From a virus, in the UHGV virus genome UHGV-0234540: 10,963 nucleotides of DNA. The stretch is one strand, 5' to 3'. Of this stretch, positions 127 through 10,963 are shown piece by piece. The position numbers were made by a program, and so were the translations under genes. The notes under the pieces were generated by a model. That model did no database searches. It was not told where the DNA came from and saw only the letters and a program-made list of their open reading frames with translations. Positions within the stretch are counted from its first letter, which is position 1. Each line of letters starts with the position of its first letter.

Positions 127-357
127 GTTGGAGTCATTACCGGGAAACCGCGATATCGTTAATAACGATGTCGTCTTTATTTATCTTGTCATAATAAAAA
201 TGCTTCCCGGAAAAAGTTTTAATAAATGACATTTCGTTCTCCACTTTATATGCGCTGCACCGCGCTGAATTTTGGGAAAAGGAAGCCCTCGCCATCCGGC
301 GATTATTGAGTCAATTACGTTTCAATAGATGCCCCCGCAGGGGCGGTTAGTTTCTCC

Positions 358-446: not shown

Positions 447-770
447 AAAAAGAGCGGTGCCAGCCGGAAGCAAGTGTACAAACTGGTACCGCCAAAGCAG
501 TGGCTGTTGTGGTGCCGGGTGCCTCCCGGTGCCTGGCGAAGGTTGCACACCAGGCGGGTGGGTATCCACAGAAGGTCGACTGTCAGCCTCAACCTTAACC
601 CGCGTGCGCTGAGCCGCATTCACCACAACGCTAAGGATTCTCTCTGGTTGAAAATACTTAGCTGTTATGTGCCTGCTTTTAGCCACATCAGGCGAGGTGG
701 ACCTGGTTATTCCCCAACAACAAGGATTCGGTTAATCTTGATACCCCCAATAACATGGTGATTATTTAAG

Positions 771-1274
771 ATGGACAAATTTGATAGAAGTGCACAAAGG
801 CAGTTGTTACAAATACTGTATGATGCTCATCCTTATGAAATTTCTGATGATGCGTTGCAGTCTGTTCGTGACGCATTTGGAGATGATAATGTCCTAATTT
901 CGAACTTAATTTATCTCGAAGAACATGGCTTGATTAAGAATGCTCTTGATTATTACTTGGATGGCATAAATATAAATATTCCTGAATTAAGAATTACTAA
1001 AGATGGAATTGATTTCATTCGTGATGATGGAGGTCTTAAAGCTATTCTTGGGATTATGACAATAAGATTGCATGATGAGACTCTCTGTGAACTTGAACGT
1101 ATCATCAATAGTTCTACTTCTGCCACGACTGAAGATAAGAAGAAATTACTTTCTCAGCTTCGAACGCTTCCTGCCGACGCCATAAAACAGCTGACGATTC
1201 GATTACTTGGTCAGGGGCTTGACCATCTGCCGGACGTATTTCACGTAATTCAAAAAGCCCTCCATTCTCTGTAA
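771..1274 (+). CDS. Hypothetical protein (167 aa), AT-rich moron; possible small winged-helix-type protein (tentative resemblance to DUF2513-like phage proteins, from memory)
   Basis: Clean ORF with ATG at 771 and GGTGA 9 nt upstream. First two-thirds is markedly AT-rich relative to its neighbours. Protein-like composition. Oriented convergently to the repressor gene and followed by an intrinsic terminator. Confidence 0.6.
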   Translation: MDKFDRSAQRQLLQILYDAHPYEISDDALQSVRDAFGDDNVLISNLIYLEEHGLIKNALDYYLDGININIPELRITKDGIDFIRDDGGLKAILGIMTIRLHDETLCELERIINSSTSATTEDKKKLLSQLRTLPADAIKQLTIRLLGQGLDHLPDVFHVIQKALHSL

Positions 1275-1452
1275 ATTCTGATTCTGGTCGGATTAGACAG
1301 AATCGTCCCCATCCGATCTGCTTACTAAGTAGAATCCAGAATTCGTCTTGTTGGTTGGTGCTGATAAAAAATCCATTAGGATGAACGTAAGCACAGAATA
1401 TGACCATAGAACCCTCTTTTGTTACGGGGATACCAGGATTGTTAAAGAGCGA

Positions 1453-1476
1453 AGCGTCCTATAGGGCGCTTTTTTT
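1453..1476 (+). terminator. Rho-independent terminator downstream of the 771-1274 gene
   Basis: Stem AGCGTCC (1453-1459) / GGGCGCT (1464-1470), 7 bp with one G-U pair, loop TATA, then a run of seven T (1470-1476). Confidence 0.5.
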
Positions 1477-1641
1477 GTTGCTAACGAATCATCCGGTCAT
1501 TCATACGCCACCGGCGGCTACTTCGTGGGCGTCCTGCCTGTTCGTTATCTTTGATATAAAATCTAACTTAACTTAGTTATTATGGCAAGAGAAAACACCA
1601 AACTTTTCTTAGTTCGGTGCCTTAGTTAGAGAAGAGAGGTC

Positions 1642-2268
1642 TTAGAGTTCGTATTGAACTCCTTTGACTACACCAATGATAAGGCAATTACCATTGATAG
1701 GGATGTTGGGATACCGAGGATTTAATGGCACTAAAAACTTTTGAGGGCCATCGATGACTAATTTTTTTACTGTAGCTTCGTTTGTTCCATCAAGTCGAGC
1801 GATGACTATTTTTCCATGACGAGGTTCTGCATCTGGATCTACAATCACTGTTGCGCCTTCTGGTATTGTTGGGAGGCCATTAGGGTTAGTCATGGAGTCA
1901 CCTTTAACCTCTAATGCAAATGAGTTATCACCAATCTTTAATGATGTATCTACCCACTTGTCCACTTCACTAAACACTTCTGCTGCCCTGCACTCAGTAA
2001 ACTGCCCAGCCTGAACCCACGATATTACAGGAACTCTGCGCATGTTTGTGACGAGTTTGCCTTCAAACTCAGCACCATAAAGAATGTAATCTATTGACGT
2101 ATTGAAGAACTTCGCTAATTTCGAAAGTGCCTCCCCACCAGGGGTATTGATGTCTTTCTCCCAGTACCCCACAGCAACGTCGCTTACTCCACAAAATTTA
2201 CCCAATTCTTTCTGGGACGTTCTGGTAACTCTTCTCAGAGCTTTTATACGCTGACCAACCGTTTCCAT
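1642..2268 (-). CDS. cI: Prophage repressor, cI/LexA-like (N-terminal XRE-type HTH + C-terminal S24 peptidase autocleavage domain)
   Basis: 208-aa ORF. N-terminal HTH (QKELGKFCGVSDVAVGYWEKD). Probable Ala-Gly cleavage site in WVQAGQF. Catalytic Ser in the KGDSM motif and Lys in ATVKKLV, as in LexA and lambda cI. Divergent from a cro-like gene. Confidence 0.9.
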   Translation of the reverse strand: METVGQRIKALRRVTRTSQKELGKFCGVSDVAVGYWEKDINTPGGEALSKLAKFFNTSIDYILYGAEFEGKLVTNMRRVPVISWVQAGQFTECRAAEVFSEVDKWVDTSLKIGDNSFALEVKGDSMTNPNGLPTIPEGATVIVDPDAEPRHGKIVIARLDGTNEATVKKLVIDGPQKFLVPLNPRYPNIPINGNCLIIGVVKGVQYEL

Positions 2269-2591: not shown

Positions 2592-3161
2592 ATGAGGCTA
2601 ACCGTGGGTAAGCATCACTGGAAAGTAGAAAAACAGCCTGAGTGGTACGTGAAAGCTGTCAGAAAAACTATCGCGGCATTGCCGGGGGGTTACGCTGAAG
2701 CTGCTGACTGGCTGGATGTAACAGAGAACGCATTATTTAACCGCCTTCGTGCCGATGGCGATCAGATTTTCCCGCTGGGATGGGCAATGGTTTTACAGCG
2801 TGCTGCTGGCACTCACCACATTGCGGATGCAGTCGCACAGTCTGCTGGTGGGGTGTTTGTATCGCTTCCTGAAATTGAGGAAGTAGAGAACGCCGATATC
2901 AACCAACGCCTGCTGGAGGTCATTGAACAGATCGGCAGTTATTCAAAACAGATTCGTTCAGCAATTGAAGACGGGGTGGTGGAACCACACGAGCAGGCAG
3001 CAATTAACGACGAACTGTACCTGTCAATTTCGAAGCTGCAGGAGCATGCAGCACTGGTCTACAAAATCTTTTGCATTTCAGAAAGTAATGACGCCCGCGA
3101 GTGTGCAGCTCCGGGCGTCGTGGCGTCGATTGCTTCTAATTGTGGAGAAACTAACGCATGA
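2592..3161 (+). CDS. Phage regulatory protein, CII-like (phage 186 CII / CP76 family); start codon uncertain (candidates 2547, 2559, 2592, GTG 2604)
   Basis: ORF directly after cro. The segment [25 protein letters not shown] resembles the recalled CII-family motif. The longest ORF start at 2490 is a GTG only 2 nt after GG and overlaps cro by 77 nt, so an internal start is preferred. Confidence 0.55.
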
Positions 3162-3496
3162 ACAGTTTAACAACACCCTACCGTCGCTCGCAACTGATTG
3201 CGCTTCCTGTACCGGGTGGAAAAGCGAAGGTGGAGTATTGCTATGCAGTGAATGTACCAGGTGACAGGGAAATTGTAACCCACAGCTTTGCAGAGTGGGC
3301 TGTGGGTGATTTCAACCGGCAGAAGGAGACAGTCCTTTGCGACAAGTTAACCGCTGGTTCAAAGATCACTACGGAGTGCCCGTCAGAGTCATTCGTTGGG
3401 AACCGGAAACACAACGGGTTATCTACCTCCGCGAAGGTTATGAGCATGAATGCTTCAGTCCGCTCGAACAGTTTCGTCGTAAATTCAGGGAAATAG
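3158..3496 (+). CDS. Hypothetical protein; only the N-terminal ~60 codons look genuinely coding in this frame (possible frameshifted gene)
   Basis: ATG at 3158 overlaps the upstream stop (ATGA), with GGAGAAA upstream. Translation downstream of ~3335 turns S/N/T-rich and non-protein-like, while the overlapping frame is protein-like. Confidence 0.45.
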
Positions 3497-3516
3497 AGGT
3501 CGGTCATGAGCACTAA
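3337..3516 (+). CDS. Cryptic small ORF (59 codons, TTG start) or the true 3' portion of a frameshifted 3158 gene
   Basis: Frame 1 is open 3310-3516 and translates to a balanced sequence ([59 protein letters not shown]). Consensus AAGGAG (3323-3328) lies 8 nt upstream of TTG 3337. The stop at 3514-3516 overlaps the next gene's ATG at 3506. Not in the ORF track because it has no ATG. Confidence 0.4.
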
Positions 3517-4447
3517 ATTAACCGGCTATGTATGGGATGGTTGCGCTGCATCAGGCATGAAGTTATCCAGCGTGGCAATTATGGCCCGCCTGGCTGATTT
3601 CAGTAATGACGAAGGTGTGTGCTGGCCATCAATTGAAACCATTGCCCGTCAGATTGGCGCGGGGATGAGTACCGTCAGAACGGCTATCGCACGGCTGGAA
3701 GCAGAAGGCTGGTTAACGCGTAAGGCGCGTCGCCAGGGTAACCGCAATGCGTCGAATGTTTATCAGCTTAACGTTGCGAAGCTTCAGGCAGCGGCATTTT
3801 CTCAACTGTCAGATTCTGACCCGTCAAAATCTGACGCATCAAAATCTGACCCGTCAAAATTTGATGCGTCGAAATCTGGCAAAAAAGCGGGTTTTCACCC
3901 GTCAGAATCTGGCGGGGATCCGTCAGTAAAATCAAAACATGATCCGTCAGATAAAAAACCTTCTCGTCCGGACGCTTCGCAACCGGACACGCAGACGGCT
4001 GAACAGGATTTTTTAACTCGCCATCCTGATGCGGTTGTATTCAGCCCTAAAAAGCGCCAGTGGGGGACGCAGGATGATTTGACCTGCGCACAGTGGCTCT
4101 GGAAAAAAATCATCGCCCTGTACGAGCAGGCTGCCGAATGTGACGGCGAGGTGGTTCGTCCCAAAGAACCGAACTGGACAGCCTGGGCAAACGAAATTCG
4201 CCTGATGTGTGTGCAGGATGGTCGTACTCACAAACAAATCTGCGAGATGTACAGCCGCGTCAGCCGCGATCCGTTCTGGTGCCGTAACGTGCTCAGCCCG
4301 TCGAAGCTGCGGGAAAAATGGGATGAGCTTTCCCTGCGCTTATCGCCGTCCGTCAGCACGTACACCGAAAAACGCGAAGACCCGTACTTCAAATCCAGTT
4401 ACGACAACGTGGACTACAGCCAGATCCCGGCAGGATTCAGGGGGTGA
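3506..4447 (+). CDS. Replication initiation protein, lambda O-like (N-terminal HTH DNA-binding domain, repeat-encoded linker, C-terminal domain)
   Basis: 313-aa ORF at the O position after cII. N-terminal HTH-like segment (SIETIARQIGAGMSTVRTAIARLEAEGWL). Internal DNA iterons encode the DPSKSDASKSDPSKFDASKS repeat. SD GAGG 6 nt upstream. Confidence 0.7.
   Translation: MSTKLTGYVWDGCAASGMKLSSVAIMARLADFSNDEGVCWPSIETIARQIGAGMSTVRTAIARLEAEGWLTRKARRQGNRNASNVYQLNVAKLQAAAFSQLSDSDPSKSDASKSDPSKFDASKSGKKAGFHPSESGGDPSVKSKHDPSDKKPSRPDASQPDTQTAEQDFLTRHPDAVVFSPKKRQWGTQDDLTCAQWLWKKIIALYEQAAECDGEVVRPKEPNWTAWANEIRLMCVQDGRTHKQICEMYSRVSRDPFWCRNVLSPSKLREKWDELSLRLSPSVSTYTEKREDPYFKSSYDNVDYSQIPAGFRG
3813..3960. repeat. 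Candidate origin of replication: iterons inside the initiator gene
   Basis: Four tandem ~15-bp units (CCGTCAAAATCTGAC, GCATCAAAATCTGAC, CCGTCAAAATTTGAT, GCGTCGAAATCTGGC; 3821-3880) plus further CCGTCAG-core copies near 3898, 3919 and 3943, ending in an A-rich stretch (3945-3958). Two GATC sites lie in the distal copies. Same layout as ori-lambda inside gene O. Confidence 0.6.
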
Positions 4448-4449
4448 TC

Positions 4450-4938
4450 ATGAGTCTTTTGAATGACGTTCAGAAATTCATTGAAGCCCATCCGGGGTGT
4501 ACTTCCGGAGACATTGCGGATGCTTTTGCAGGTTACTCACGGCAGCGCGTACTGCAGTCAGCAAGCAAGTTACGTCAGAGTGGGCCTGTGGCTCACCGTT
4601 GTGAAGGGGATACACGCAGACATTTCCCGCGCCTGACTGAGAGAGCGCGGGAGCCGGAACCACAACCAGTTCGTGAAACCAGACCTGTGCGCAATTTCTA
4701 TGTCGGCACTAACGATCCCCGGGTGATTTTGTGCCTGACCCGCCAGGCTGAAGAACTGGAGTCAAGAGGCTTATTTCGTCGTGCTGCAACCGTGTGGATG
4801 GCGGCATTCCGTGAAAGCCACTCCCAGCCAGAACGAAACAATTTTCTGGCGCATCGTGAGCGGTGCTTACGGAAAAGCAGCAAGCGCGCTGCATCGGGTG
4901 AAGAGTGGTATCTGTCAGGGAATTACGTGGGGGCTTAA
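4450..4938 (+). CDS. PerC/Pch-like transcriptional regulator with N-terminal winged-helix-like domain
   Basis: The C-terminal segment ELESRGLFRRAATVWMAAFRES matches the PerC-family signature (..RGLWRRAA..W) recalled from memory. ATG 4450 is preferred over GTG 4444 (AGGGGG 6 nt upstream). Its stop overlaps the next start (TAATG). Confidence 0.5.
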   Translation: MSLLNDVQKFIEAHPGCTSGDIADAFAGYSRQRVLQSASKLRQSGPVAHRCEGDTRRHFPRLTERAREPEPQPVRETRPVRNFYVGTNDPRVILCLTRQAEELESRGLFRRAATVWMAAFRESHSQPERNNFLAHRERCLRKSSKRAASGEEWYLSGNYVGA

Positions 4939-5591
4939 TGAGTAATAAATATTGCCGGGCGCTGGTGGAGCTGCGGAACAAACCAGCCCATGAACTGAAG
5001 GAAGTGGGCGATCAGTGGCGCACGCCGGACAACATTTTCTGGGGAATTAACACCCTGTTTGGCCCGTTTGTTCTGGATCTGTTCACTGACGGTGATAACG
5101 CCAAATGTGCTGCGTATTACACGGCGGAAGACAACGCGCTGGCGCATGACTGGTCAGAACGTCTTGCGGAGCTTAAAGGGGCTGCCTTTGGTAATCCCCC
5201 ATACAGCCGCGCCAGTCAGCATGAGGGGCAATACATCACCGGCATGCGTTACATCATGAAACATGCCAGTGCCATGCGTGATAAGGGTGGGCGCTATGTT
5301 TTCCTGATCAAAGCTGCCACCAGCGAAGTGTGGTGGCCGGAAGATGCGGACCATATTGCTTTTATTCGCGGGCGTATTGGTTTTGAACTGCCTGCCTGGT
5401 TTATCCCGAAGGATGAGAAGCAGGTGCCGACAGGCGCTTTCTTCGCTGGTGCTATTGCTGTTTTCGATAAGACCTGGAAGGGACCGGCAATCAGCTACAT
5501 CGGGCGCGATGAACTTGAGGCATGTGGTGAAGCGTTTCTGGCGCAGGTTCGCCAGCAGGCGGAAAAACTGGTCAGGGAGATGGCGGCATGA
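4938..5591 (+). CDS. Phage Dam-family DNA N6-adenine methyltransferase (orphan)
   Basis: NPPY catalytic motif (AAFGNPPYS). N-terminal region typical of phage Dam-family enzymes. Start ATG 4938 overlaps the upstream stop. No adjacent restriction endonuclease. Confidence 0.8.
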   Translation: MSNKYCRALVELRNKPAHELKEVGDQWRTPDNIFWGINTLFGPFVLDLFTDGDNAKCAAYYTAEDNALAHDWSERLAELKGAAFGNPPYSRASQHEGQYITGMRYIMKHASAMRDKGGRYVFLIKAATSEVWWPEDADHIAFIRGRIGFELPAWFIPKDEKQVPTGAFFAGAIAVFDKTWKGPAISYIGRDELEACGEAFLAQVRQQAEKLVREMAA

Positions 5592-5914
5592 CGACGTTAA
5601 CTCAATGCCAGCAGCAGGTGCTGGATATGCTGATTTCTTACCAGAAAGAGCGTGGCTTTCCGCCAACCAATCAGGAGGTGGCAACCATGCTGGGATACCG
5701 TTCAGTGAATGCAGCGGTAGAGCATCTTCGTGCACTGGAGAAAAAAGGCGTCATCACGATAAAGCGTGGCGTGGCCCGGGGGATAACGCTTCATACCGCG
5801 GTGAAGGACGACGACAGCGAGGCGGTCGGGATTATCCGCGCACTGCTTGCCGGTGAGGAAAACGCCAGGCTGCGTGCAGCCCACTGGTTACATGAGAGAG
5901 GCCTGAAAGTATGA
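5588..5914 (+). CDS. LexA N-terminal DNA-binding-domain homologue lacking the S24 peptidase domain (108 aa)
   Basis: Residues 4-68 align with E. coli LexA residues ~4-68 (LTQCQQQVLDMLISYQKERGFPPTNQEVATMLGYRSVNAAVEHLRALEKKGVI versus LexA [53 protein letters not shown]). No Ala-Gly site or Ser/Lys peptidase motifs follow. ATGA overlaps at both ends. Confidence 0.75.
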   Translation: MTTLTQCQQQVLDMLISYQKERGFPPTNQEVATMLGYRSVNAAVEHLRALEKKGVITIKRGVARGITLHTAVKDDDSEAVGIIRALLAGEENARLRAAHWLHERGLKV

Positions 5915-6300
5915 AGCTGATCTTGCCTTTCCCGCCCAGCGTGAACACGTACTGGCGACACCCCAACAAAGGGGCGTTTGCTGGTAAGAGCCTGATAAGC
6001 GAGGCGGGGCGAAAATTTCAGAGCGCGGCGTGTGCAGCAATAGTTGAGCAGTTACGTCGTCTGCCGAAACCAACGTCGGCACCTGCTTCAGTGGAGATCG
6101 TGTTGTTTCCTCCGGATAACCGGATCCGCGATCTGGACAACTATAACAAGGCGCTGTTTGACGCCCTGACCCACGCGGGTGTGTGGGAAGACGACAGACA
6201 GGTGAAAAGAATGCTGGTGGAGTGGGGACCGGTTATCCCGAAAGGGAAGGTCGAGATCACTATCAGTAAGTATGAGAAACCGGCGGGTGCAGCCGCCTGA
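5911..6300 (+). CDS. rusA: Holliday junction resolvase RusA
   Basis: 129-aa ORF. Motif DLDNYNKALFDALTHAGVWEDDRQV matches the RusA catalytic core (DLDN...DAL...DD.QV). SD GAGAGAGG upstream. Nin-region position. Confidence 0.85.
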   Translation: MKLILPFPPSVNTYWRHPNKGAFAGKSLISEAGRKFQSAACAAIVEQLRRLPKPTSAPASVEIVLFPPDNRIRDLDNYNKALFDALTHAGVWEDDRQVKRMLVEWGPVIPKGKVEITISKYEKPAGAAA

Positions 6301-6319
6301 TTAAGAGGAGAAACGAAGT

Positions 6320-7129
6320 ATGAATAATCTGATGGTTATTGATGGTATTGAAGTTCGTCGTGATGTTTATGGGCGTTACAGCCTGAACGATCTGCATCGC
6401 GCAGCAGTAGCATCTGGTGCAAATGCCAGAACCAAGGAGCCAGGAAAGTTTCTTTCCAGCCAACAAACTGTTGAACTTGTTCATGAATTGACCAACACCC
6501 AGAATTTGGGTGTTGACCCGGTGAGTGTGATTCATGGGGGAAATGAACGGGGAACTTATGTCTGCAAGGAACTGGTGTATGCCTATGCAATGTGGATCAG
6601 CCCGTCATTCCATCTGAAGGTGATCCGTACTTTCGATATGGTAACCAGCGCACCGGAAAAATTATCCGGGCAGGCTGCTGACAAGATGCAGGCTGGCGTG
6701 ATTCTGCTGGACTTTATGCGCCGGGAGTTAAACCTGTCTAACTCATCTGTGCTTGGGGCCTGTCAGAAACTCCAGGAGGCTGTTGGCTTACCGAATCTGG
6801 CACCACGCTATGCCATTGATGCTCCTGCTGACGCGCCTGATGGCTCAAGCCGCCCCACGCTGTCACTGAGTGCACTGCTGAAGCAGTATGGTATCCGCCT
6901 GACAGCTAATCAGGCATATCACCAGATGGTGAAGCTGGGGATCGTCGAGCAGCGCGAACGATACAGCCGTACCGCGATTAACAACATCAAAAAATTCTGG
7001 TCGCTGACAGCGAAAGGCTGCATGTTCGGCAAGAATATCACCAGTCCCGCAAATCCGCGCGAGACGCAGCCGCATTTCTTCGAATCCCGATTCCCTGAGC
7101 TGTTAAAGCTGCTCGATACCGTTCATTGA
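6320..7129 (+). CDS. KilA-N domain protein with uncharacterised C-terminal domain
   Basis: N-terminal ~110 aa fits the KilA-N pattern (RYSLNDLHRAA...KELVYAYAMWISPSFHLKVI). Strong SD AGGAGA upstream. Confidence 0.7.
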   Translation: MNNLMVIDGIEVRRDVYGRYSLNDLHRAAVASGANARTKEPGKFLSSQQTVELVHELTNTQNLGVDPVSVIHGGNERGTYVCKELVYAYAMWISPSFHLKVIRTFDMVTSAPEKLSGQAADKMQAGVILLDFMRRELNLSNSSVLGACQKLQEAVGLPNLAPRYAIDAPADAPDGSSRPTLSLSALLKQYGIRLTANQAYHQMVKLGIVEQRERYSRTAINNIKKFWSLTAKGCMFGKNITSPANPRETQPHFFESRFPELLKLLDTVH

Positions 7130-7130
7130 G

Positions 7131-8126
7131 GTGACCGTGAGAGCACTACTGACCCCTGAAATTGCCCCGCGTATGGGGATCGTATTGTTCAGGCCAGGTT
7201 CAGAGTTGATGCCCCTGTTTATGCAGGGGCGTGTCCTGCTGGAGCCTGAGCCGGAACGTTATTCATCTTTCGCCAGTGGTGCAGTTCCGGCGGCATCACA
7301 ACCGCTGGCGGATGATCCTGCCGTTCGGGCCGTGTTCCGCAATGAGGCAGTGATCCGTCGTGCTGGTGGCGTGGAATGTCTTGAAAGCTGGTTACTTCGT
7401 GAAAAAGGCTGCCAGTGGCCTCATTCCGACTGGCACAGCGAGAACATGACCACAATGCGACACGCTCCGGGCGCAATCCGTCTGTGCTGGCACTGCGATA
7501 ACCAGCTGCGCGATCAGTTCACGGAACGGCTGGAATCAATGGCAACGGATAACTGTGCCCGCTGGGTGTTGTCTGTTGTGCGTCGGGATCTCGGTTTTGA
7601 TGACAGTCACGTTGTGACAATGCCGGAACTGTGCTGGTGGCTGATTCGTAATGACCTGGCGGATGCCTTACCGGAAAGTGCAGCCCGTAAGGCACTGAGA
7701 TTACCGAAGCCTGTTGTGCCGTCTGTCTCCCGGGAAAGTGACCTTGTGCCTTCGGTTCCTGCCACCAGCATCATCCAGGATAAGGCGAAAAAGGTGCTGG
7801 CGCTGAAAGTGGATCCGGAGTCGCCGGAGTCTTTTATGTTACGCCCAAAACGTCGCCGCTGGGTTAATGAAAAGTACACGCGCTGGGTTAAGACACAGCC
7901 GTGTGCATGTTGTGGAAAGCCCGCTGATGATCCCCACCACCTGATAGGTCACGGTCAGGGGGGAATGGGAACAAAAGCGCATGACCTTTTTGTGTTGCCT
8001 TTGTGCAGAAAGCATCACGACGAGCTGCATGCGGATACCGTGGCATTTGAAGAGAAGTATGGCTCCCAGCTGGAGCTGATATTTCGTTTTATCGATCGTG
8101 CGCTGGCAATTGGCGTGCTGGCGTAA
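7131..8126 (+). CDS. DUF968 / Ref-like protein with C-terminal HNH-type nuclease motif
   Basis: C-terminus CACCGKPADDPHHLIGHGQGGMGTKAHDLFVLPLCRKHHDELH is a Cys/His HNH signature like the P1 Ref family (from memory). GTG start at 7131 immediately after the upstream stop; start is uncertain. Confidence 0.65.
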   Translation: MTVRALLTPEIAPRMGIVLFRPGSELMPLFMQGRVLLEPEPERYSSFASGAVPAASQPLADDPAVRAVFRNEAVIRRAGGVECLESWLLREKGCQWPHSDWHSENMTTMRHAPGAIRLCWHCDNQLRDQFTERLESMATDNCARWVLSVVRRDLGFDDSHVVTMPELCWWLIRNDLADALPESAARKALRLPKPVVPSVSRESDLVPSVPATSIIQDKAKKVLALKVDPESPESFMLRPKRRRWVNEKYTRWVKTQPCACCGKPADDPHHLIGHGQGGMGTKAHDLFVLPLCRKHHDELHADTVAFEEKYGSQLELIFRFIDRALAIGVLA

Positions 8127-8139
8127 GTGGAGAACGAGC

Positions 8140-8892
8140 ATGAACCTTGAAGCCTTACCAAAATATTACTCCCCAAAATCTCCAAAATTGAGTGATGACG
8201 CACCGGCGACAGGCTCGGGTGGTTTAACAATTACAGATGTGATGGCTGCGCAGGGGATGGTGCAGTCGAAAGCACCGCTTGGGTTTGCCTTATTCCTGGC
8301 AAAAGTTGGTGTTCAGGATCCTCAGTTTGCGATTGAAGGTCTGCTCAATTACGCGATGGCACTGGATAACCCGACATTGAACAAATTGAGTGAAGAAACC
8401 CGGTTACAGATCATCCCTTACCTTGTGAATTTTGCCTTTGCTGATTATTCCAGGTCTGCGGCAAGTAAGGCTCGCTGTGAGCATTGTGCTGGTACTGGAT
8501 TTCATAATGTATTGCGCGAAGTGGTGAAACACTCCAGAAGCGGGGAATCTGTTATCAAGGAAGAGTGGGTGAAGGAACTGTGTCAGCATTGTCATGGTAA
8601 GGGAGAAGTCAGCACAGCGTGCAGAGGGTGTAAGGGTAAAGGTATTGTCCTGGATGAAAAAAGAACCCGGCTTCATGGCACGCCTGTTTATAAGGTTTGT
8701 GGGCGTTGCAATGGAAACCGGTTTAGCCGTTTACCAACCACACTGGCGCGGCTTCATGTCCAGAAGCTGGTACCAGACCTGACGGATTATCAGTGGTACA
8801 AAGGATATGCAGATGTCATTGATAAACTGGTTACAAAGTGCTGGCAGGAAGAAGCATATGCAGAGATACAATTGAGAAAGGTGACAAGATAA
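8140..8892 (+). CDS. Q: Late-gene antitermination protein Q (zinc-finger type)
   Basis: Last gene before the candidate late promoter and terminator and the lysis genes. Four CxxC motifs (CEHCAGTG, CQHCHGKG, CRGCKGKG, CGRCNGNR). ATG 8140 with GTGGAG SD is preferred over the longer ORF start at 8098. Confidence 0.7.
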   Translation: MNLEALPKYYSPKSPKLSDDAPATGSGGLTITDVMAAQGMVQSKAPLGFALFLAKVGVQDPQFAIEGLLNYAMALDNPTLNKLSEETRLQIIPYLVNFAFADYSRSAASKARCEHCAGTGFHNVLREVVKHSRSGESVIKEEWVKELCQHCHGKGEVSTACRGCKGKGIVLDEKRTRLHGTPVYKVCGRCNGNRFSRLPTTLARLHVQKLVPDLTDYQWYKGYADVIDKLVTKCWQEEAYAEIQLRKVTR

Positions 8893-8923
8893 ATGGTTTT
8901 CGCCGAAGATGACGACATGATGC

Positions 8924-8952
8924 TTGCGTTTTTCAAAAAATATGGATAAGAT
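8924..8952 (+). promoter_or_regulatory. Candidate late promoter PR' (-35 TTGCGT 8924-8929, -10 TAAGAT 8947-8952), with the Q-utilisation region expected nearby
   Basis: A -35/-10 pair with 17-bp spacing 30-60 nt downstream of the Q stop and ~50 nt upstream of the intrinsic terminator, as for lambda PR'-tR'. Hexamers are imperfect. Confidence 0.3.
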
Positions 8953-8998
8953 TTTCACAACGATGGGCTTTGTATGTCTACCGTTGATAAGATTTAAG

Positions 8999-9023
8999 AA
9001 CCCGCCACTGAGCGGGTTTTTTT
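8999..9023 (+). terminator. Rho-independent terminator (tR'-like)
   Basis: Stem AACCCGC (8999-9005) / GCGGGTT (9012-9018), loop CACTGA, followed by a T-run to 9023. Confidence 0.7.
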
Positions 9024-9145
9024 GTACCTGTAAACTTGGTGCAGTACAGTAAACACGCTGGTGGTCGTGAATACTGACTTTTTATCTTGCTGGCTTTTTA
9101 GACAAGAGTTACTGGTATGTCATGTTAACCAGAAGGGAAAAAGAC

Positions 9146-9349
9146 ATGCTAAAACAGCAAGATATGACAGAAACCGCCGCCGCAGTCCTTCATTTCTTAC
9201 CTGCTGACAAGTGGGTAACGCCACGCATGATGACGAGAACTACCGGAGTAAGCGAAGCCCGGTGCCAGTTAATACTGACTCAGTTAGTTCTGGCGGGGCT
9301 GGCGAAGGATAACGGCGGGTACGGGAATAAATTCAGACGCTGCCAGTAA
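9146..9349 (+). CDS. Small putative winged-helix DNA-binding protein (67 aa)
   Basis: ATG 9146 with AGAAGGGA SD 7 nt upstream is preferred over ATG 9122. The segment WVTPRMMTRTTGVSEARCQLILTQLVLAGLA has a winged-helix-like pattern resembling the N-terminal domain of the 4450-4938 protein. Confidence 0.45.
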   Translation: MLKQQDMTETAAAVLHFLPADKWVTPRMMTRTTGVSEARCQLILTQLVLAGLAKDNGGYGNKFRRCQ

Positions 9350-9499
9350 TGGCGGTTTCCTGCTGTGAAAATGGGCGGCTGGTGGGTGTTGGTAGCACCT
9401 GCCAGCCATTCGCTCATGCTTACTGGTCACAAGCGAACCACGGCCCACTGCTTTAGCGCAAAAGCAGAGTGAGCCTACCAGAGTTACGCTTACTGATCC

Positions 9500-10552
9500 A
9501 TGAAAAATACTGTAAAAATAAACAGTGTTGATTTAATCAACGCTGATTGCCTGCATTTTATTCAGTCCCTGCCTGATGATTCCATTGACCTGATTGTTAC
9601 CGATCCGCCGTACTTCAAGGTGAAACCCAACGGCTGGGACAATCAGTGGAAAGGGGACGAAGATTACCTTAAGTGGCTGGACCACTGTCTGGCCCAGTTC
9701 TGGCGGGTGTTAAAACCTGCCGGAAGCCTTTACCTGTTCTGTGGGCATCGCCTGGCATCTGATATTGAGATCATGATGCGTGAACGTTTCAACGTGCTTA
9801 ACCATATCATCTGGGCGAAGCCGTCCGGACGTTGGAATGGGTGTAATAAAGAAAGTCTGCGCGCATATTTTCCTGCCACAGAGCGCGTTCTGTTTGCTGA
9901 ACATTACCAGGGGCCATATCGCGGCAAAAGTGACGGCTATGCGGCAAAAGAAAGGGAACTCAAACAGCACATAATGGCACCGCTGATATCGTATTTCAGG
10001 GATGCTCGTGCCGAACTGGGTATAACGGCAAAACAAATTGCCGAAGCCACAGGTAAGAAAAATATGGTTTCCCACTGGTTTGGTGCCAGTCAGTGGCAGT
10101 TGCCGAATGAGGCTGACTATCGGAAGTTACAGGCACTGTTTTCCCGTATAGCGGCAGAGAAGTTTCAGGAACAACAACTGGAACAACCACACCACCAGCT
10201 GGTGGCATCTTATGATTCACTGAATCGCAAATATTCTGAATTGCTGGATGAGTTTAAATCTCTCCGGCGCTATTTCTCCGTATCAGTCTCCGTGCCTTAT
10301 ACCGATGTCTGGATGCATAAACCCGTTCAGTTCTACCCGGGTAAACATCCGTGTGAGAAACCGGCGGATATGCTCAGGCAAATAATCAATGCCAGTAGTC
10401 GACCTGGTGATCTGGTTGCTGATTTTTTTATGGGATCCGGTTCCACAATAAAAGCAGCAATGGCGCTGGGGCGTCGGGCCTTAGGTGTTGAGCTTGAGTC
10501 AGAGCGGTTTAACCAGACAGTGAAAGAGATAAACGAGCTGGTGGGGAAATAA
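9500..10552 (+). CDS. Orphan beta-class DNA methyltransferase (N6-adenine or N4-cytosine type)
   Basis: Motif IV DPPY (LIVTDPPYF) near the N-terminus and motif I FFMGSGST near the C-terminus give the beta-class order. A central insertion (residues ~150-250) contains an HTH-like stretch ([13 protein letters not shown]). No cognate endonuclease adjacent. Confidence 0.85.
9508..9527. promoter_or_regulatory. SOS-box-like palindrome TACTGTAAAAATAAACAGTG (CTGT-N8-ACAG) within codons 3-9 of the methyltransferase
   Basis: Matches the E. coli LexA box consensus TACTGT-(AT)4-ACAGTA at 11 of 12 arm positions with an all-A/T spacer. It is the only CTGT-N8-ACAG found in the window by manual scan. Confidence 0.35.
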
Positions 10553-10558
10553 TCTGGT

Positions 10559-10580
10559 GGCCACGTCAGGTGGCCTTTTT
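10559..10580 (+). terminator. Rho-independent terminator after the methyltransferase
   Basis: Stem GGCCAC (10559-10564) / GTGGCC (10570-10575), loop GTCAG, then TTTTT (10576-10580), 7 nt after the stop at 10550-10552. Confidence 0.55.
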
Positions 10581-10619
10581 ATTTCCATTACACAGCACCC
10601 GCATCTGCGAGGTGGGGTT

Positions 10620-10835
10620 ATGAAATCCATGGATAAGTTAACAACGGGTGTCGCCTATGGCACCTCAGCAGGTAGTGCCGGGTACTGGTTTTTACAGTTG
10701 CTCGATAAAGTCACGCCCTCACAGTGGGCGGCAATAGGTGTGCTGGGTAGTCTGGTATTTGGCCTGCTGACGTACCTGACAAACCTTTATTTCAAGATTA
10801 AAGAAGATAAGCGCAAGGCTGCGAGAGGTGAATAA
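10620..10835 (+). CDS. essD: Class II pinholin, phage-21 S-type (EssD-like), dual-start MKSM motif
   Basis: [26 protein letters not shown]...[19 protein letters not shown] closely matches recalled S21/EssD. Two predicted TM helices. Met1-Lys-Ser-Met4 dual start. GAGGTGGGG SD. The ORF-track start at 10557 is rejected because it runs through the terminator hairpin. Confidence 0.85.
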
Positions 10836-10963
10836 TGCCTCCATCATTACGAAAAGCAGTTGCTGCTGCTATTGGTGGCGGAGCAATTGCTATAGCATCA
10901 GTGTTAATCACTGGCCCAAGTGGTGACGATGGCCTGGAAGGTGTCAGCTACATACCATACAAA
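10835..10963 (+). CDS. rrrD: SAR endolysin (lysozyme), phage-21 R-type (RrrD-like); N-terminal 43 codons, continues past window end
   Basis: [43 protein letters not shown] matches the recalled N-terminus of R21/RrrD including the Gly/Ala-rich signal-anchor-release helix. ATG overlaps the holin stop (TAATG). Confidence 0.85.

Follow-up and report, generated by a model that had tools for sequence, protein, structure and literature searches.

A mobile cassette of lambdoid prophages holding a predicted pair of antisense-overlapping genes, possibly expressed in opposite phases of the phage life cycle

The positions beside phage repressor genes and inside lytic operons hold genes through which temperate phages change their hosts, including exclusion, defence and virulence functions. 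In phage λ, the rexAB genes lie between cI and the left operator (OL) and are read together with cI, while bor and lom represent morons in the Hendrix/Juhala sense. In phage P22, the early-left sieB/esc/sas system reportedly combines a lysogen-expressed gene with a second product that cancels its effect on the phage's own lytic growth; antisense transcription is said to decide which product is made, the second product being an in-frame truncation and the antisense element a small RNA, as Ranade and Poteete are said to have described in 1993. The element considered here is a cassette neighbouring the cI repressor gene in a 10,963-nucleotide stretch of the virus genome UHGV-0234540 (hereafter the window), which is a piece of an E. 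coli lambdoid prophage of the SfV/SfIV/mEp460/CPS-53-like kind. The cassette carries a gene of 167 codons (ORF167) and, convergent with it and overlapping its 3' end, an unannotated gene of 97 codons (ORF97). The reading that we favour, with a probability of roughly one half, is that the two form a mobile accessory module of temperate phages inserted "against the flow" of a lytic operon, ORF167 serving in lysogeny and ORF97 being its lytic partner or antagonist.

Like bor and lom, the cassette has a deviant composition, occurs in some relatives only, lies between conserved lytic genes in the opposed orientation and is followed by a terminator, and one of its homologs, in phage PhiR49_2, occupies a bor-like place between Rz and the terminase gene. 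It differs from these morons in having two opposite-strand genes instead of one, and no signal peptide or membrane feature is evident. The likeness to the P22 sieB system would be one of logic, a lysogen gene and a counteracting product being encoded by the same DNA; there is no similarity in sequence or fold and no match to the SieB Pfam family, and here the antisense strand encodes a separate protein.

ORF167 (771-1274, plus strand, ATG start), identified by open reading frame scan and corresponding to the hypothetical protein WP_000357060.1, was the only gene that a first-pass annotation, made from the sequence alone, had noted in the cassette. That it is a real gene is borne out by phrog_3983, which it matches from end to end at E 2.6e-59 (residues 1-165 against profile positions 1-164 of 165). 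The first sign of ORF97 was the neighbour clustering of ORF167 homologs, in which a similar protein appeared in three other loci. In the window, ORF97 occupies 1114-1407 on the minus strand (ATG 1407-1405, stop 1116-1114), covers the last 158 nt of ORF167 and is preceded, 4 nt 5' of its ATG, by the Shine-Dalgarno sequence AGAGGG (1412-1417, minus). Searches with tblastn located ORF97 antisense to the 3' end of the ORF167 homologs of E. coli, Mangrovibacter, Citrobacter, Dryocola, Xenorhabdus, Providencia, Symbiopectobacterium, Salmonella, Serratia and Proteus, with weaker matches in Achromobacter and Luteibacter (homologs at loci L007, L010-L012, L018, L022, L025, L030, L032, L034, L036 and L037). 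The isolated phages PhiR49_2 and GF-2 also carry it, again unannotated. Across genera the proteins share 40-60% identity at distances at which the DNA can hardly be aligned; a homologous ATG and a frame that stays open for 96-118 codons are seen in nine diverged loci, and the homologs have a Shine-Dalgarno sequence (GGAG, AGGAG or GGAGGG) at the spacing found here. Among ORF167 homologs of low or moderate GC content, the antisense frame is closed in those devoid of the ORF97 N-terminal part and open in those that have it.

Purifying selection acts on both genes of the pair. Over the 44 codons of ORF97 that lie outside ORF167, the mean proportions of non-synonymous (pN) and synonymous (pS) differences are 0.33 and 0.87, a ratio of 0.38, and the differences are distributed 643/429/948 over the three codon positions; for the two shifted frames the corresponding values over the same codons are 0.97 and 1.43, and stop codons interrupt the other five frames. 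Of 72 distinct IMG/VR loci, 68 carry a homolog of ORF97 that overlaps ORF167 in the same way; the first-pass description of a single-gene unit is not supported. Because of the conserved start, the coding-like evolution and this pairing, ORF97 is, as judged from sequence, a real gene, which makes the unit a pair. Only ORF167 is listed by PGAP and by most gene callers, standard annotation having missed ORF97 because gene callers discard antisense overlaps. A protein database of 5.8 billion sequences returned 7 and then 25 matches to ORF97, none described beyond "hypothetical protein".

The first-pass annotation had placed the cassette at a rex-equivalent position, a location that the operators of the region contradict. 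The operator motif CTAAnnnnnCTTAG occurs at four places, with seven matches counting both strands against 1.4 expected. Two of these places, at 2291 and 2340, are the right (OR) operators between cI (1642-2268, minus strand) and cro; the other two, CTAACTTAACTTAG at 1563-1576 and CAAACTTTTCTTAG at 1599-1612, lie just downstream of cI and are presumably the OL operators. Both are overlapped by a putative leftward promoter, pL (minus strand, -35 TTGCCA at 1588-1583, 17-nt spacer, -10 TAGATT at 1565-1560), so that the segment 1560-1612 can be read as OL/pL. With operators and a leftward promoter standing between cI and the cassette, the latter would be located inside the pL operon, flanked by pL on one side and the early-left genes on the other; ORF97 is the first gene after pL in the window, and ORF167 would be antisense to that operon. 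ORF167 is indeed convergent to cI, as first described. The cassette resembles λ rexA-rexB as an accessory module adjoining the repressor gene in a lambdoid immunity region; unlike rex, which is co-transcribed with cI, it lies beyond OL/pL, with ORF167 on the other strand and not co-transcribed with cI, and Pfam and PADLOC scans revealed no RexA or RexB homology of its proteins.

Between the inferred pL and ORF97 lies a hairpin, GAAGCGTCC-TATA-GGGCGCTTT followed by a T-run (1451-1478, plus strand), detected by terminator scan and centroid folding, in which a 9-bp stem (1451-1472) is followed by TTTTTTTG. On the plus strand it has the features of a good intrinsic terminator for the ORF167 transcript, and it is located 177 nt 3' of the ORF167 stop codon, which means that the ORF167 mRNA would be complementary to the whole of ORF97 and its ribosome-binding site. 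On the leftward transcript the hairpin is directly followed by an exact rrn-type boxA (GCTCTTTAACAA, 1450->1439, minus strand), 31 nt upstream of the ORF97 ATG and the sole match in the window; boxA consensus sequences are well established from rrn operons and the λ nut sites. The element is exact in Mangrovibacter (L007) and has one mismatch in Salmonella (L030). In Providencia, Xenorhabdus, Symbiopectobacterium, Serratia and GF-2 there is at this place an intrinsic terminator in the direction of ORF97, 10-20 nt 5' of the Shine-Dalgarno sequence. A hairpin, either together with boxA or as a terminator, thus appears to control whether transcription enters ORF97, and such a gate fits expression of ORF97 from termination-resistant lytic transcription alone.

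The boxA itself is identical at 12/12 positions to the rrn boxA core GCUCUUUAACAA, follows a hairpin, as boxA does in rrn leaders, and lies early in the pL transcript. It differs from the rrn and λ nut elements in that neither an N protein nor a boxB consensus was identified, and most relatives have a plain intrinsic terminator instead. It could be the signal by which this phage group achieves early antitermination or counters Rho. Upstream of it, the inferred pL transcript has a conserved 5' leader (1483-1553, minus strand) common to SfV, SfII and SfIV, which is kept despite different immunity regions and cassettes (also at L003 2895-2958 and L006 1564-1627) and includes a hairpin that shows compensatory change, CCGG..CCGG in the window against CCTGG..CCAGG in SfV. 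The possibility that this leader is similar to putL/putR, the two-stem antiterminator RNAs of HK022, was considered: the position fits and one hairpin covaries, but the alignment is poor and the consensus fold weak (-7.3 kcal/mol), making the similarity unconvincing.

The limits of the cassette were established by blastn comparison with vB_EcoM-689R6 and SfIV, which places the breakpoints at 754/755 and 1418/1419 and delimits a swappable segment (755-1418) of 38.1% GC. The backbone resumes at 1419-1546, common to 689R6 and SfIV, with 1483-1546 found also in SfV and SfII. The DNA shared with the Salmonella P2-like locus spans 664-1450, which gives the module's own limits. The compositional deviation noted at first holds: ORF167 has 37.7% GC (29.8% at third codon positions, GC3) against 49.7% for the whole window and 51.7% for 2700-10963, and only 1.7% of 504-bp windows are equally AT-rich. 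In relatives the same slot is filled by SfIV gp36, SfV orf33 or mEp460 gp36/37, and by almost nothing in SfII, the contents being unrelated. As the flanks are common and the contents differ, the initial view of a horizontally acquired cassette is upheld, and the element can be described as a mobile, AT-rich accessory cassette in a variable slot of SfV/SfIV/mEp460-like prophages. It was found in 77 of 5,426 complete E. coli genomes, NCTC86 and an ST69 strain among them, with at least 99% identity in all.

The claim that the cassette is self-contained holds only in part. It can be swapped, and the hairpin with its T-run is real; however, the latter is located in the shared backbone (1419-1546) and is not private to the cassette, and the best promoter candidate reaches only a 9/12 consensus match. 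Of the structured upstream block (333-754) that had been counted as part of the module, 664-754 alone moves with the cassette, the remainder being backbone that overlaps the small RNA sRNA-17. As a separate observation, SfIV and 689R6 hold in the slot a 144-aa gene with a 68-aa convergent partner (in vB_EcoM-689R6, L002 3940-4552, 144 aa on the plus and 68 aa on the minus strand, with a 29-nt overlap), both unrelated to ORF167 and ORF97; pairs of convergent genes may be characteristic of this slot.

The pair occurs in at least five kinds of insertion context: beside pL, in the window and in Mangrovibacter (L007); in a P2-like immunity region of Salmonella; between Rz and the small terminase gene in PhiR49_2, or adjacent to terminase in Serratia; in Edwardsiella phage GF-2, within an immI-like region; and beside BstA and cI in a Proteus prophage. 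In GF-2, an Arc/Mnt-like gene diverging from arc-ant has its stop codon overlapped by the ORF167 homolog, with which it shares an operon. A Pseudomonas phage has an ORF167 homolog antisense between cro and cII. The Proteus locus (L034; 833-1330 and 2840-3745) also has, tandem upstream, a diverged ORF167 paralog of 28% identity. In the same locus, the abortive-infection gene bstA is situated between the pair and cI.

Among the Enterobacterales loci with ORF97, at least one flanking gene is on the strand opposite to ORF167 in 9/9 and both flanks are in 6/9. In the viral loci the downstream flank is opposite in 60/72 and both flanks are in 45/72, counts in which some of the plus-strand left neighbours are spurious open reading frames in a non-coding block. 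It follows from this orientation that ORF97 runs with the local lytic operon and ORF167 against it. The neighbours are overwhelmingly phage genes, such as those for S24 repressors, tape measure, terminase, portal and antirepressors, and beyond S24 repressors and generic phage genes no conserved same-strand protein partner or neighbour was found. Known defence genes are nearby only occasionally (one type IIG restriction-modification system, one Septu and one PD-T7-4). Taken together, the orientation and the contexts of the relatives, that is the opposed lytic genes, the GF-2 operon and the nearby BstA, would agree with expression of ORF167 in lysogens.

ORF167 belongs over its full length to PHROG 3983, a family without known function. 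A hidden Markov model (HMM) search gathered at least 1,135 cluster representatives at 50% identity, 917 of them below 1e-10 and nearly all of 155-175 aa, and a word-indexed search gave 30 relatives. The identical protein is present on at least 1,000 contigs, called "hypothetical" on all, and the family is represented on over 500 IMG/VR contigs and in phage isolates from Escherichia, Klebsiella, Edwardsiella, Pseudomonas, Acinetobacter and Halomonas. As the first-pass annotation had stated, no function can be assigned from sequence: PHROG 3983 is uncharacterised, and neither ORF167 nor ORF97 has a significant match in Pfam, NCBIfam or PADLOC (in PADLOC-DB 2.0, a single match of ORF167 to CARF_m5 at E 0.013 and none of ORF97). 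The PADLOC result and the scarcity of defence neighbours neither favour nor disfavour the defence or exclusion role raised in the first-pass annotation. The ORF167-family profile gave only noise against PDB sequences (E 0.2 or worse). The literature yielded no mention of WP_000357060 or phrog_3983 and no useful information on DUF2513/YjcQ and, as far as the searches show, both proteins are undescribed in papers or database entries.

The AlphaFold2 model of ORF167, built from 25 sequences, has a mean pLDDT of 77, with values of 86-91 over the N-terminal 80 residues. It predicts a winged helix of PadR/MarR/YjcQ type (residues 6-84), a DDGG loop and then four C-terminal helices. Invariant positions of the family include R6, Q9, Y48, L49, G79, D81, D86 and G88. 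The predicted resemblance to YjcQ/DUF2513 is at fold level alone: ORF167 had no match above the gathering threshold to Pfam DUF2513 (PF10711) or YjcQ (PF09639), and matches to these families appeared in 3 of 35 relatives, at E 9e-5 or weaker. From these and other PadR/MarR winged-helix proteins the family differs by its invariant GxDF..DDGG motif and by a 75-residue helical C-domain without match. ORF167 is acidic (pI 5.0, N-domain pI 4.35; family median 5.6); DNA binding is plausible from the modelled fold, and the charge gives no sign of it. The AlphaFold2 model of ORF97, from six sequences (pLDDT 77), is a compact small beta-barrel of five strands with a C-terminal helix, for which no informative structural neighbour and no known toxin fold or family were found.

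The 5' region that moves with ORF167 into the context of Salmonella L030 corresponds to 664-770 (plus strand). It contains a weak sigma-70-like site (TTGATA at 738-743, 16-nt spacer, GATTAT at 760-765, plus strand), CA-rich direct repeats (CCCCAACAACA at 712-722 and CCCCAATAACA at 745-755) and an inverted repeat (TTAATC at 732-737, GATTAT at 760-765) which is a perfect TTAATC..GATTAA in Salmonella L030. No Shine-Dalgarno sequence precedes the ORF167 ATG. The repeats within 712-765 may represent operators, or else an element involved in translation or of the Hfq type. Similar repeats, CCACAACA, are also seen upstream of the Proteus and Serratia homologs, and upstream of the unrelated SfIV-type cassette gene.

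In the reading that we favour, the lytic operon would be silent in the repressed prophage and ORF167, a winged-helix protein of the dimer type, would be made. On induction or infection, transcription from pL (in other contexts, late transcription) would pass the hairpin and ORF97 would be made, the lytic transcription colliding or pairing with the ORF167 transcript. The 158-nt convergent overlap and the extension of the ORF167 mRNA across the whole of ORF97 suggest that expression of the two genes is mutually exclusive, through transcriptional interference and antisense pairing. ORF167 would then provide a lysogeny-specific activity, either regulation or the exclusion of other phages, and ORF97 would act as a lytic-phase partner or antagonist that shuts down this activity, or takes its place, upon induction of the prophage itself. 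A more far-reaching version, which we consider doubtful, is that the pair is an unrecognised and widespread prophage switch, in which the two proteins are encoded on opposite strands and lysogenic and lytic transcription each yield one and silence the other. ORF167 could, for example, be an exclusion or defence factor, or a regulator, active in lysogens alone, and ORF97 a built-in antagonist allowing the resident phage to escape on induction.

Several observations weigh against the reading that we favour. The distant relatives of ORF167 in Xanthomonadales and Burkholderiales have no clear ORF97 and are co-directional with their neighbours, which indicates that ORF167 can act alone. The terminator scan found no strong minus-strand terminator between 1642 and 1407, and read-through of cI transcription (from pRM) could reach ORF97 in lysogens. 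The candidate ORF167 promoter would begin the RNA at the ATG, producing a leaderless mRNA, and no sigma-70 promoter was found at a constant position among 51 distinct ORF167 upstream regions. Finally, the 53 overlapping codons of ORF97 have a pN/pS of 0.95; since the ORF167 frame dictates the sequence there, a ratio near 1 is what the overlap gives, and constraint on this part of ORF97 is inseparable from constraint on ORF167.

Of the competing explanations, the one that survives best, though we regard it as unlikely, is that of a toxin/antitoxin-like or abortive-infection pair, in which ORF97 would be the toxic effector and ORF167 a DNA-binding antitoxin or repressor, ORF97 being kept silent through ORF167 and the antisense transcript until infection or induction frees it. 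The sizes would suit such roles (a helix-turn-helix protein with a C-terminal extension and a beta-rich protein of about 100 aa with a C-terminal helix), and so would the obligatory pairing in 68 of the 72 loci, the residence in accessory hot-spots of prophages, with BstA as a neighbour in one case and Septu, restriction-modification or PD-T7-4 systems occasionally nearby, and the terminator directly 5' of ORF97, which suggests a need for tight silencing. Type II toxin-antitoxin systems, in contrast, consist of adjacent co-transcribed genes, not of convergent ones overlapping by 158 nt.

Less probable again is that ORF167 is an auxiliary, Mnt-like second repressor acting on phage or host promoters, ORF97 being an unrelated early gene and the overlap a matter of compaction. 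The predicted PadR/MarR-type winged helix with a long helix suited to dimerisation, the GF-2 homolog that overlaps the stop of the Arc/Mnt-like gene next to arc-ant, and the inverted and direct repeats upstream of ORF167 speak for a regulator. Nevertheless, the pair moves as a unit among unrelated positions and the slot of sister phages has unrelated contents, which argues against a part in core regulation; the 68/72 pairing is hard to square with compaction, the N-domain has a pI of 4.35 and its putative recognition helix is without basic residues. The proposal of a single-gene moron with ORF97 as a non-functional antisense "shadow" frame is now very unlikely, because, although antisense open frames are common opposite real genes, most annotation pipelines report ORF167 alone and the overlap evolves at a pN/pS of about 1, the 44 non-overlapping codons are under purifying selection in the ORF97 frame alone, the ATG and Shine-Dalgarno sequence and 40-60% protein identity are conserved across genera, the frame is interrupted in homologs without the N-terminal part, and six sequences sufficed for a compact AlphaFold2 fold.

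The surroundings of the cassette complete the picture of the early-left region. The immunity region holds cI (an S24/LexA-type repressor, with HTH_3 and Peptidase_S24 profile matches), a P22-Cro-like cro (2366-2566) and a CII/YmfL-like gene. At the left end of the window, positions 1-142 are an IS1 terminus, recognisable by its terminal inverted repeat, and the insertion truncates yfdR (137-295, minus strand; 5'-deoxynucleotidase, phrog_318). This phage group is devoid of an N homolog, and its early-left genes are yfdR-yfdQ-yfdP (PMC12315714). In most relatives yfdQ and yfdP lie between yfdR and the 333-754 block; here they are missing, as in SfII. A 12-nt hairpin sequence at 333-344 flanks the yfdQ-yfdP module on both sides in relatives and may mark a module junction. 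In the replication/nin region, 3' of an adenine methyltransferase gene, there is a second short LexA-family gene (5588-5914, 108 aa), apparently consisting of the DNA-binding domain alone, whose copy in the relative L001 is named LexA family regulator by PGAP.

The 333-754 block itself (420 bp, 55% GC, minus strand) is a non-coding and separate conserved element of the backbone. It is 92-96% conserved in SfV, SfII, SfIV and mEp460; by blastn, 92-93% in vB_EcoM-689R6 and SfIV and partly kept in SfV, SfII and mEp460. It was found in more than 2,800 of the 5,426 complete E. coli genomes. Its portion at about 439-522 corresponds to the 3' portion of sRNA-17, a 193-nt RNA published for E. coli K1 (PMC7719688), which was placed by means of the supplement of that study and phage mEp460; deletion of sRNA-17 derepressed yfdP by 2^6.6 (PMC7719688). 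Rfam gave no match at gathering thresholds and, below threshold, STnc100 at 508-627 on the minus strand (35.6 bits against a gathering score of 47), inside the block and outside the cassette. The probable identity of this block, which does not belong to the cassette, is that of a terminator or leader RNA of the early-left region. A minus-strand hairpin at about 456-490, followed by GCUCUUUUU, has the appearance of the sRNA-17 terminator.

In summary, the moron is a known kind of element, whereas an obligatory antisense-overlapping partner and insertion against lytic operons are new, as far as the tools used here show. The cassette belongs to a large and wholly uncharacterised family. The revised map of the early-left region of this phage group, with OL/pL, boxA, leader and terminator block, bears on how early antitermination is achieved without an N protein. 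Were the two products made in opposite states of the life cycle, the cassette would represent a simple, portable way of linking a function to lysogeny, and a clean test case for functional antisense-overlapping genes. Should the module prove to be a switch, it would be among the best-supported long antisense overlaps of two protein-coding genes in bacteria or phages.

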